This document shows positions 1 through 60,809 of a DNA stretch of 64,000 nucleotides, piece by piece. Numbering within the stretch: position 1 is the stretch's first letter; the number at the start of each line of letters is the position of its first letter. The notes beneath the pieces are model-generated. The model made no database searches. It was given only the letters and a program-made list of their open reading frames with translations, and was not told where the DNA came from. Origin of the DNA: Rhabdothermincola salaria (GTDB lineage Bacteria; Actinomycetota; Acidimicrobiia; Acidimicrobiales; Acidimicrobilacustridaceae). Location of the stretch: contig NZ_JAJQXW010000001.1 in NCBI RefSeq assembly GCF_021246445.1, positions 744,001 to 808,000 on the forward strand, in the 5' to 3' direction. A program made the position numbers and the translations under genes.

Positions 1-34
1 GGCGCACCGACGCCCCACGGGTGACCGGGGCCGG

Positions 35-2367: not shown

Positions 2368-5929
<3,562 letters not shown>

Positions 5930-31512: not shown

Positions 31513-32658
31513 ATGAGCGACGCCGCGTCCCGCGCCTATGCCGCCGGTCTCCCGAACCCCGAGTTCGCCACCACGGCCCGCACCGAGCCCAAGGCGTTGT
31601 CCCAGGCCACCGTCGCCATCGTCACCACCGCCGCCATCCACCATCCCGGCGACGAGGGCTTCAGCTTCGACGACACGGGCTTCCGGGTCATCGACCAGGA
31701 TCGCCCCGAGGTCGTCATGGGGCACTGGAGCCCCAACTTCGACCACGCCGGCTTCGCCGCCGACCCCGAGGTCGTGCTGCCGCGAGCACGCCTCGCCGAG
31801 CTCGCCGACGAGGGCGTGATCGGACGGGTCGCCGCCCGCCACGTCTCCTTCGCCGGCAACCAGGAGGACACCGTCACCCGGATCCGCCTCGACTCCGGTC
31901 CGGCGGCCGGCGAGCTGCTGCGCGGCGACGGGGTCGACGTGGTGGTGCTCACCCCCGTCTGACCGCTCTGCACGCGCACCGTGTGTGTGCTCGCCCACGT
32001 CCTCGAGGCCGCCGGCCTCGCCACCGTCGCGCTCGTGTCCAACCGGGTCGTGGCCGAGAAGATGCACCCGCCGCGCGCCCTCTACGGCGAGTTCCCGCTC
32101 GGCCGACCGCTCGGCAAGCCGGGCGACCCCGCCTTCCAGCGTGACGTGCTGATGCGAGGGTTCGCCCTGCTCGACAGCCCCGAGGTGCCGGTGCTCGTCG
32201 ATCACCCCGAGGTCATCGAGATCGACGAGACGCCGCTCGCCTGTGCGCTCCCGCCCCGCTACGACACCTCGGTGCCGGCGGCCGTCGACGAGGCGCGGGC
32301 TCTGCGCCCGGCATGGGACCGCAGCCTCGACCGTCTGGGGCTCACCTCGGTCGGGCGGGTCACCGACGCCGACGGCATCCCCGATCTGGTCGGCCGGCTG
32401 GTCCGCATCGCCGAGGGCGAGCGGTGGGACGAGGTCGGCCTCCCGGGCGACCCGGTCAGCTGCGCCCACGACCTGCGCACCTACTACGAAGAGGCGGCCA
32501 TCGCCCTGGCCGACGACGTGACCGGCGGTTCCGCCGAGGTCTGGTTCTCCGAGGTCACCGAGGCCGGCCAGACGCTCCTGGCCGCCCGGCGGCGCATGAA
32601 GGAGCAGGACGCCCCGTTCGCCTTCTGGTTCTACATGGCCGCAGGCGTGCGCTCCTGA
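31513..32658 (+). CDS. PrdB/GrdB-family (glycine/betaine/D-proline reductase B-like) selenoprotein, Sec at TGA 31960-31962, 381 aa
   Basis: Track ORFs 31513-31962 and 31981-32658 are in one frame. Readthrough gives DGVDVVVLTPV-U-PLCTRTVCVLAHVLEAAGLATV (UxxC); also VAIVTTAA, DP.VVLP, EG.IG, PPRAL..FPLGRPLG. Confidence 0.85.
31970..31990 (+). promoter_or_regulatory. Candidate bacterial SECIS element
   Basis: GCACGCGCA-CCG-UGUGUGUGC: 8-9 bp stem with two G-U pairs, beginning 8 nt after the UGA. Confidence 0.55.
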
Positions 32659-58538: not shown

Positions 58539-58790
58539 ATGCTCGACACGGTCTCCACCACGGTCAACACCGGCCTCGACTCCCTCGTGGCCCTCGTGGC
58601 CGACGCCGAGGCGGCCGGCGACATGCTGTTGTCGTCGAACCGGCTGGTCGACGCCCTGCTCGACGCCCGGGCCGAGACCACGGGTCCGGCCACGGACGCC
58701 GTCGACGACGCCCTGCGGGCGTCCGCGCACCGCCAGGTCGTCCCGGTCGACGAAGCGGTCGAGTTCGTGGCTGCCGTCCGGGCCGCCTGA
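58539..58790 (+). CDS. Small helical hypothetical protein
   Basis: AGGAAGG SD, high GC3; alternative in-frame ATG at 58452 just after TACGGT. Confidence 0.65.
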   Translation: MLDTVSTTVNTGLDSLVALVADAEAAGDMLLSSNRLVDALLDARAETTGPATDAVDDALRASAHRQVVPVDEAVEFVAAVRAA

Positions 58791-58812
58791 CCGACCCGCA
58801 ACAGACCGGTGG

Positions 58813-59190
58813 TCAGCGCCGGTAGGTGACCACGTAGTCGACGATGGCGTCGATCTCGTCGTCGTCGAGAGTCGTCTCGTAGGCGGGCATGCCCGACTCG
58901 AAGCGACCCACGCGCACGGCGTCCTCCACCAGCACGGGATCGGGATCGAGCGCGACGAGATCCGCCCCGGTGCCTCCCGGTCGGTGGCAGGTGCCGCAGT
59001 GCTCGGCGAAGAGCGCGGCGCCGGTCACCGCGCTGTGAGCCTCGCCCATCGCCGGTCCCCGGCCGGGCTCGGCCGAGGACCCGCACCCGGTGGCGACGAG
59101 GGCGACCAGAGCCAGGGCGACCGCGACGGGCTCCCGTCGGCGTCGCAACCGCAGGCCCCGCCAGGCTCGGGTCGGATCAGGCGCCGGCAT
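58813..59190 (-). CDS. Monoheme c-type cytochrome lipoprotein
   Basis: Lipobox ATGC, CGTCH heme motif, distal GMPAY, EIDAIVDY; start overlaps the upstream gene by 14 nt. Confidence 0.85.
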   Translation of the reverse strand: MPAPDPTRAWRGLRLRRRREPVAVALALVALVATGCGSSAEPGRGPAMGEAHSAVTGAALFAEHCGTCHRPGGTGADLVALDPDPVLVEDAVRVGRFESGMPAYETTLDDDEIDAIVDYVVTYRR

Positions 59191-60277
59191 CGCCCTCGCC
59201 GGGCCGGTCGTCGACCGTCAGGCCCACGTAGTCCGGACGGCCGGCGTCGTCCCAGATCTGCCACAGCTCGAAGAAGTCCTGACCGAAGGGATCGAGGCCC
59301 CGAGCGGGCATCGACCCCCGGCTGATCGTCCAGTCCAGCGGCGCCAGCTCGACGGCGCGTGCGTAGTGCCCCTCGGCCTCCGCGTCGAAGCTGTGGCGGG
59401 CCAACCACGACGCGAGGCGCCGTTCGACCCGAGCGGCCTGCTCCTCAGGTGTGGGTGGGCGCGCCGTCCCCGAAGGTGCCTCGTGGCCGCCCATGGCCGG
59501 CAGCACTCCGTCGTGCACCCAGCGACGCAGCGCGTCGTGGTGCTCCTCGGCATCGATGCGGGTGAAGTCCTTGAACTCGTTGGTGCCCGGTGTGATCGTC
59601 GGCGGCTTCACCACCCGACCGTCCTCGTCGAGCCACACCGTGGCCGGCACGTTGGTGATGCCGTAGGTCTCGGCCACGGCGTGGTCGGCATCGAGGACGA
59701 CGGTCATGGTGGTCACCGGCGGCTCGGCGTCCTGCACCCATGGGCGGATCGCCTCAGGGGAGTCGTCGAGAGCAACGGCGACGATGTCGAGGCCGAAGGG
59801 GGAGAGCTCGTCGTGGAGGGTCTGCCAGACCGGCAGCTCGTAGCGGCACCCTCACCACGAGGACCAGGCCAACAGGACCCGCTTGCGGCGTTCCAGCGCC
59901 GGGACCTCCACGAGCGTCCCCGACAGGTCGGGGAGGCGGAGCTGGGGCGCTCGTCCACCGGCGAGGGCGGCCGCCCGCTCGTGGGCAGCATCACCGATGG
60001 AGACCACCGTGGGTCCACCGGACGGGCGAGCCACCGCGAACGGGCGCTGCAGGGCCGCGGACACCGCCGCGAGGTCGAGGCGACCATCGGCGTGCCGCGC
60101 CCCTGGATCGCGGACCGGGACACACAGGTCCCCCCGGCACAGGCCCTCGGGCTTGGGCTCCCACCCGGTGAGGCGATGGATCGCGTCGGCCTCGAGCCAC
60201 ACGCGGTCGCCGTCGTCGTGGGCGTCGACCTCGGTGTCGCCCTCCGCGGTCAGCACGGTCACGGCGCGTCGGGACAT
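59177..60277 (-). CDS. Thioredoxin-fold (ResA/TlpA/redoxin-like) selenoprotein, W-S-S-W-U-G-C, Sec at TGA 59852-59854, 366 aa
   Basis: Track ORFs 59852-60403 and 59177-59737 are in one frame. Readthrough: APQLRLPDLSG...VLLAWSSW-U-GCRYELPVWQTLHDELSPFGLDIVAVALD...YGITNVPATVWLDEDGRVV. Confidence 0.88.
59816..59853 (-). promoter_or_regulatory. Candidate bacterial SECIS element
   Basis: U-GAGGGU-gccgcuacgag-CUGCC-GGUCU-GGCAG-ACCCUC: 6-bp lower stem, 5-bp upper stem, G-starting loop 21 nt after the UGA. Confidence 0.72.
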
Positions 60278-60389
60278 GGCCGGAGCGTAGCGGGGCAGCT
60301 CTCCCGCCGGCCGGGTCGAGCGTCGTCCGGCGGTCCTCGCCGCGCAGGGGGTCCGCGAGCCGGGACGGCCGGCAGGTACCGTCCGGGCC

Positions 60390-60809
60390 ATGACCGATGA
60401 CACGCTCCTGCGCCGCGTGGCCGACGACCTCGAGATCCGCTCCGTCGTGGCCCGCCTGGCCCAGTACGCCGACGGAGGTGATCTCGACGACTACGTCGAG
60501 CTGTTCACCGAGGACGCCTTCTGGAACATGCCGGGGGCCCCTCGCCGGGGTCGCGACGACATCCGGGCCGGGGGAGAGGCCCGCCGGGCCTCGGGCGAAG
60601 CCGGTCCGGGCAGCAACAGCCGCCACATGATCACCACCATCACCGTCGACGTCGATGGCTCCGATGCAGCCGTGGCCGACTCCTACTGGCTCTTCTACGT
60701 CGACACCGCCGAGAGCCCCACCCTCAAGGTGTGCGGGTCCTACCGCGACACCTTCCGGCGCACGCCCTCGGGCTGGAAGCTGGCCCGGCGCGACGTGAGC
60801 TTCGGATGA
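60390..60809 (+). CDS. SnoaL-like / NTF2 family protein
   Basis: EIR..ARLA..AD.GD...LFTEDA, RH.ITT, GSYRD.FRRT..GWK. Confidence 0.87.
   Translation: MTDDTLLRRVADDLEIRSVVARLAQYADGGDLDDYVELFTEDAFWNMPGAPRRGRDDIRAGGEARRASGEAGPGSNSRHMITTITVDVDGSDAAVADSYWLFYVDTAESPTLKVCGSYRDTFRRTPSGWKLARRDVSFG

Follow-up and report, generated by a model that had tools for sequence, protein, structure and literature searches.

The UGC-containing Prx-like proteins were predicted computationally in 2008, when Zhang and Gladyshev reported a 'Prx-like (UGC-containing)' family with 46 selenoproteins and 855 Cys homologs, commoner in non-marine samples (PMC2398784). Reviews still place UGC-containing Prx-like proteins among the predicted families (PMC9312934, PMC13188914), and a search of mostly open-access literature found no functional or experimental study of the family. 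Selenocysteine (Sec) use has also been described in small-genome Actinomycetota (bioRxiv 10.64898/2026.04.03.716425). The gene described here lies on the minus strand, at 59177..60277, of a window of 64,000 nucleotides (the whole stretch of DNA that was analysed) from Rhabdothermincola salaria. It is a further member of the family predicted in 2008 rather than a discovery, and for a specialist the findings hold no surprise. By eye, reads in Dataset S1 of the 2008 paper share with the window protein the 15-residue string WSSWUGCRYELPVWQ, the N-terminal GLC-x4-C-x-P hairpin, and the C-terminal RASMPLRG-x-DPFG tail. Nothing of substance differs between the window protein and the published family, and the accessible text of PMC2398784 neither separates two subfamilies nor gives a function. 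The window protein also contains a pfam00578 domain (51.9 bits against a cut-off of 26).

The closest curated model is NCBIfam NF041054 (WAxxUGC_long, 'ResA-like WAxxUGC motif-containing protein'), an equivalog of 354 positions. It is the best NCBIfam match of the read-through product (E 1.1e-58), shares with it the three-part layout and the position of the motif, and is matched by all 117 aligned family members. An earlier reading of this DNA, made from the sequence only, had mentioned a named family of ResA-like WAxxUGC proteins. The family exists, but the window protein falls below its cut-off; it scores 199.3 bits against 300, and its best-matching stretch extends no further than model position 200. 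The window protein reads W-S-S-W-U-G-C, with Ser for the Ala of WAxxUGC (many homologs have W-A-S-W), and has 366 residues rather than 354. Among six Sec paralogs from relatives, five score 399-545 bits and one, the ortholog of the window gene, 249; four Cys homologs score 191-234. The C-terminus of the paralogs scoring 399-545 bits differs from that of the window subfamily. The scores and sequences point to two sister subfamilies, both of which appear by eye in the 2008 set, with NF041054 covering the other one. The curated model thus misses the whole window subfamily, a common one in Acidimicrobiia: a near-full-length match at E<1e-60 was found in 39 of the 151 genomes that were searched. 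At one locus (L130, G091:C142, minus strand, 1419-2441 and 2530-3603), both subfamilies occur in tandem, each with a TGA and the same hairpin; one of the pair passes NF041054 (545 bits) and the other fails (249).

Other known systems resemble the window protein in part. TlpA, ResA, and CcmG/DsbE share its fold, the W-x-x-W before the attacking residue, and the proline loop, whereas they have CxxC in place of UxC, and the window protein has no anchor or signal and carries two extra domains. Its ResA model score is 58 bits against a cut-off of 170. The bacilliredoxins BrxA (YphP) and BrxB (YqiW) have a CGC motif (PMC8301015), comparable to the UGC of the window protein and the CGC of its Cys forms. 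They are a different family, since no DUF1094-type Pfam match was found: DUF1094 is absent from the window protein's Pfam matches at E<=0.1 and from the 25 families listed, out of 27, for the 117 members. CnoX/YbbN chaperedoxins also combine a thioredoxin domain with TPR-type helices, whereas the window protein has a single helical hairpin, and its core is of TlpA type and preceded by an additional N-terminal domain. To our knowledge, bacillithiol is not expected in this host.

Translation from 60277 to 59177 gives 366 residues with a single internal TGA, codon 142 (59852..59854, minus strand), and a terminal TGA. Codon 142 sits in the context W-S-S-W-U-G-C-R-Y-E-L-P, and the codons quoted in the sequence-only reading (TCC TCG TGG TGA GGG TGC CGC TAC GAG CTG CCG) match the window exactly. 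The read-through gene proposed there holds as a single 366-codon gene, to which the minus strand, previously unstated, can be added. Standard ORF calling yields two pieces, one of 183 aa upstream and one of 186 aa downstream from a GTG at 59737 (residue 181). The 38 codons between the TGA and this GTG have a GC3 of 0.89, compared with 0.88 before the TGA and 0.90 downstream, and are coding-like in this respect. In the structure model these codons supply helix 143-161 and strand 163-169 of the redoxin fold, as had been proposed. Gene callers split the gene: the database call (P0003) retains a 219-residue fragment without the active site, and two N-half fragments (P0256 and P0267) terminate at the motif Trp. 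A promoter and terminator scan of window positions 58700-60500 returned none of either.

The host genome, which is 97.8% complete, encodes the Sec machinery. selA, selB, and selD score 402.8, 260.2, and 364.8 bits (cut-offs 267.9, 242.25, and 125), and a tRNA-SeC with anticodon UCA lies at C2:662642-662737; the host SelD has C-A-C rather than Sec. In the window protein, Sec142 stands where CxxC proteins have their first, attacking Cys. Across 111 homologous sites (110 loci, from relatives and GTDB genomes), the codon is TGA in 31, TGC in 72, TGT in 8, and never any other, counts that are not frequencies because the contig search used Cys-based patterns and the best 80 of 266 matches were taken. 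Five identical duplicate pairs among the 80 Cys forms leave 75 for comparisons. Eleven further loci add 4 TGA and 7 Cys forms, and all 117 full-length aligned proteins read W-C-G-C at this position (the first row being the window protein with C for U). TGA occurs at the identical codon in all four congeners and also in distant lineages. Searching 26 genomes with a 12-letter pattern for the W-U-G-C codons was uninformative, since matches turned up everywhere.

The presence of TGA also follows that of selA, which was tested in the 40 best-matching relatives of 56 with any match. It is present in 18 of 18 TGA relatives (17 above the cut-off, and G002 in three frameshifted pieces) and in 3 of 22 Cys relatives, whose genomes are often incomplete (8 of the 22 are at least 90% complete, two of those eight with selA); kinship among related sequences still inflates these counts and those of TGA and Cys. 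On a quick maximum-likelihood tree with the Sec site masked, there are at least nine Sec/Cys changes, five of them forced by strong branches, so the TGA-selA association is not one inherited event. Three genomes with selA (G055, G060, and G029) have the Cys form, Sec having been lost from the gene or a Cys copy acquired. We put the probability at about 97% that TGA142 is a Sec codon, predicted to be served by a coding-region SECIS and the host SelA, SelB, SelD, and tRNA-Sec. The selenoprotein call made from the letters alone is supported by the HMM match, the Cys/TGA alternation, the SECIS model, and selABCD.

The bSECIS core lies at 59822..59836 on the minus strand, 20 nt after the UGA, and consists of a 5-bp stem (CUGCC/GGCAG) with a 5-nt loop (GGUCU). 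It can be extended by GAG/CUC (59839-59837 with 59818-59816). Published bSECIS criteria specify a loop of 3-9 nt with G[G/U] in its first two places, a stem of 4-16 bp, a distance of 16-37 nt from the UGA, and a minimum free energy of <= -7.5 (PMC13188914). The values computed for the window hairpin (loop 5 nt, stem 5-8 bp, spacing 20 nt, and -9.1 kcal/mol for nt 13-45) lie within these ranges. A loose version of these criteria of our own also passes 50 of the 75 Cys forms and is weak alone. A 40-nt piece at the locus has a folding z of -1.31, with 19 of 200 shuffles as good and a different register, and longer pieces give z values that are positive or near zero. When the same peptide, with its L-P-x-W-Q, is recoded with the synonymous codons of a GC-rich genome, the 5-bp stem arises in 46% of cases. 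The hairpin at the window locus alone is no better than chance; its support is comparative.

Across homologs, every one of the 31 TGA forms has a perfect stem at +19..23/+29..33, as do 12 of 75 Cys forms. A G at +25 with U or G after it is found in 31/31 and 15/75, respectively. In a fixed register, the stem and the loop G-[U/G] coincide in every TGA form (31/31) and in 3 of 75 Cys forms. Among proteins with L-P-x-W-[Q/E], the stem is present in 31 of 31 TGA and 10 of 28 Cys forms, and CTG encodes the Leu in 30 of 31 and 13 of 28. The sole CTG exception (L023) has a double change from C-G to G-C that leaves the stem intact. All TGA forms encode Val or Gly in the loop; most Cys forms encode Ala there. 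At the 11 further loci, stem and loop G-[U/G] are present in 4 of 4 TGA forms. The full stem is also found in five of the seven Cys forms there, some of them with loop G-G as well, which shows that the hairpin is not confined to TGA forms.

The sequence-only reading described this element as an fdhF-like SECIS on a GAGGGU/ACCCUC base stem, and both parts of that description need qualification. E. coli fdhF, fetched and folded, does contain the GGUCU sequence, as GGUCUG at +22..+27, two bases nearer the UGA, but it has a 4-nt loop and a stem with a bulged U, whereas the window hairpin has a 5-nt loop and an unbulged stem. The loop is also variable among the 31 TGA homologs (GGUCU in 22, CGGGU in 6, CGUGU in 2, and AGGUU in 1), its constant part being G-[U/G] at +25/+26. 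Two other selenoprotein genes in the host genome have unbulged stems and loop G-U, and their hairpins are a better comparison than that of E. coli fdhF. The base stem can be located at 59853-59848/59821-59816, but this 6-bp pairing uses two bases of the UGA and is complete in 1 of 31 TGA forms. At least four pairs form in 25 of 31 TGA and 12 of 75 Cys forms, a difference that arises partly by construction, with the A of the UGA as one partner.

AlphaFold2 modeling on 117 sequences yields a model with pLDDT 93 and pTM 0.90. The N-terminal beta/alpha domain (residues 1-97; 59987..60277, minus strand) carries C47-x4-C52 on a beta-hairpin. Both cysteines are invariant in the 117 sequences and are found in 258 of the 259 rows covering each position in a wider set, in keeping with the N-terminal Cys domain proposed earlier. 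Foldseek returned no match for this domain at E<=0.001. Its best VIA-align match is 5h3k (Z 5.9, rmsd 3.7, 89 aligned), followed by usher N-domains at Z 4.3, in a search that used a single-sequence model (pLDDT 84) and shows neither a new nor a known fold.

The TlpA/ResA-like thioredoxin-fold domain spans approximately residues 100-258 (59504..59980, minus strand). Pfam AhpC-TSA (51.9 bits) and Redoxin (45.6 bits) both match above their cut-offs, and VIA aligns the domain with 3gl3 (Z 15.2, rmsd 2.0, 140 aligned) and ResA 2f9s (Z 14.2, rmsd 2.3, 137 aligned). When aligned with 3kcm and ResA, the window protein lacks one residue of CxxC, and its Sec falls at the position of the first Cys. The TlpA/ResA-type fold and the contraction of CxxC to UxC, both put forward in the earlier reading, are confirmed by these comparisons. 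Cys144 (59846..59848, minus strand), the second Cys-type residue of U-G-C, is invariant in all 117 sequences, and R145 is invariant as well. The proline loop of the thioredoxin fold is N-V-P 209-211 (59645..59653, minus strand), which aligns with VP of 3kcm and LP of ResA; V210 and P211 are invariant and N209 is at least 90% conserved. Distant members mostly have CGC, with single CSC, CEC, CLC, and CRC forms and one CES variant.

The C-terminal part (residues 277-350; 59228..59449, minus strand) is helical, with a TPR-like hairpin of two modeled helices (277-294 and 298-311) and a strongly conserved tail (D315, R320, P330-F331, W342, G346-R-P, and Y350). The TPR-like C-terminus of the sequence-only reading is present as a two-helix hairpin in the model. 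TPR Pfam models do not match the window protein, although at E<=0.1 they match as many as 67 of the 117 family members. Weak covariation, with D172-I318, L170-T317, and Y146-P324 among the top 20 pairs, puts residues 317-324 near 146 and 170-172 and hints at packing of the tail beside the active site; the analysis is shallow (266 rows, Neff 160, 336 columns), with rows selected for the CxC motif. A crude hydropathy test detected no signal or membrane segment (highest 19-residue value 0.77, N-terminus -0.14), in agreement with the absence of a signal peptide noted before. Three homologs (P0169, P0182, and P0188) have N-termini that resemble signal peptides by eye, and some family members may be exported.

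The window protein is best explained as a soluble, probably cytoplasmic selenoprotein of the 'UGC-containing Prx-like/TlpA' family. We give somewhat better than even odds to its being a thiol-disulfide oxidoreductase in which Sec142 acts as the nucleophile and either C144 or a small thiol does the resolving. From its place where the active-site helix begins, the Sec142 selenolate would attack a substrate disulfide or a protein mixed disulfide, and Cys144 would then resolve the adduct to a strained U-G-C selenenyl-sulfide ring. Alternatively, a low-molecular-weight thiol could resolve it by a monothiol route, the mechanism by which the CGC bacilliredoxins BrxA/B work (PMC8301015). Mycothiol genes in the host score below their cut-offs (MshC-like 431 bits against 485; best mycothione reductase match 253 against 636). 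The helices at the C-terminus probably form a lid or partner site beside the active centre. Sec would be a catalytic upgrade rather than a requirement, because Cys orthologs replace it freely. CxC sites in other proteins have potentials of -130 to -200 mV (PMC3173608), and since CxC rings are fairly oxidising, an isomerase or de-thiolating activity seems more likely than a strong ResA-type reductase role.

An internal relay, in which the C47-x4-C52 pair would return the U-G-C selenenyl-sulfide to its reduced state, either intramolecularly or between the subunits of a dimer, refines the oxidoreductase explanation and does not exclude it. The invariance of the pair in a protein without a signal peptide and a pTM of 0.90, suggesting a fixed three-part arrangement, are both consistent with such a relay. 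So is weak covariation linking the hairpin region to redoxin residues 214-243 (K42-A243, G38-D237, V53-V214, and L46-P225), and there is precedent in nDsbD, which uses a Cx5C pair (PMC3173608), and likewise in fused thioredoxin modules. The covariation is shallow (Neff 160 for 336 columns), however, and the pair could instead be a plain structural disulfide in the homologs with signal-peptide-like N-termini or could bind metal; we regard the relay as unlikely. A fuller version, a self-recycling three-part enzyme in which an N-domain of previously undescribed fold would use its invariant C-x4-C to re-reduce the strained Sec-Gly-Cys ring while the C-terminal lid selects one substrate, is a longer shot, and if true would make the protein a naturally occurring UxC catalyst of thioredoxin fold that contains its own relay. 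About as doubtful as this fuller version is a Sec-dependent peroxidase, in which the selenolate would, like that of glutathione peroxidases, reduce H2O2 or organic hydroperoxides and be recycled by C144 or a small thiol. The published name 'Prx-like' and the 'peroxiredoxin' names given by JGI to many homologs agree with a peroxidase, as do weak GSHPx Pfam matches in 56 of 117 members, Bcp/AhpE structures matching at Z 11-12, and the invariant R145. Peroxiredoxins, however, are defined by a P-x-x-x-T/S-x-x-C motif, which is absent in the window protein, where L-A-W-S-S-W-U-G precedes C144. They also have a catalytic Arg where the thioredoxin fold has the proline loop that the window protein retains, and its best sequence and structure matches are ResA/TlpA/DsbE.

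By far the least probable account is that the TGA is a true stop (through a pseudogene, a sequencing error, or two genes) or a Trp codon, and this account is already largely refuted. The gene-caller splits (P0003, P0256, and P0267) and a hairpin that is not significant at the window locus alone would fit a stop, but the same-codon TGA recurs in each of the four congeners as well as in distant lineages, TGA forms track selA, and homologs have Cys, never Trp, at codon 142. The host also has both tRNA-Trp(CCA) and tRNA-Sec(UCA), and the gene itself ends in TGA. The family can readily be expressed and assayed through its naturally occurring Cys orthologs, and matched Sec/Cys pairs, the switch having happened repeatedly, offer a ready test set for the contribution of Sec in a UxC site.

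Neighbouring genes were considered as a clue to the substrate and rejected, no neighbour being conserved across lineages. Clustering of 1629 ORFs around the homologous loci gave nothing common to the whole family, many clusters being shadow frames; synteny is at lineage level only (acyl-CoA dehydrogenase-like, ligase-like, and similar genes, named by eye). In the window, a monohaem cytochrome c gene (PF13442; 58813-59190, minus strand) overlaps the end of the selenoprotein gene by 14 bases. It is probably a recent insertion, because it is found at the window locus only and is absent from the loci of all four congeners. An 83-aa helical ORF without a Pfam match (58539-58790, plus strand) lies beside the selenoprotein gene in 4 of 4 congeners.

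A scan of 68001 TGA codons in the host genome gave 33 candidates, three of them convincing, by a crude procedure that may miss others. Conceivably, these Acidimicrobiia retain the Sec machinery for only a few proteins, the redoxin among them. No Sec formate dehydrogenase was seen in the host genome (TIGR01553 best 88 bits, no internal stops). Another selenoprotein gene in the window (31513-32658, plus strand, TGA at 31960) is PrdB/GrdB-like, with T-P-V-U-P-L-C, a long C-terminal extension, a hairpin loop of CGUGU, and a TIGR04483 score of 97.9 bits against a cut-off of 300. It is probably the first selenoprotein of the sequence-only reading. Elsewhere in the host genome (G000:C1:1335636, plus strand; L126:1400-1879), a UGSC-family selenoprotein gene (NF041046, 156.3 bits; cut-off 125) directly follows a larger gene with, by eye, a thioredoxin-like N-terminal part.
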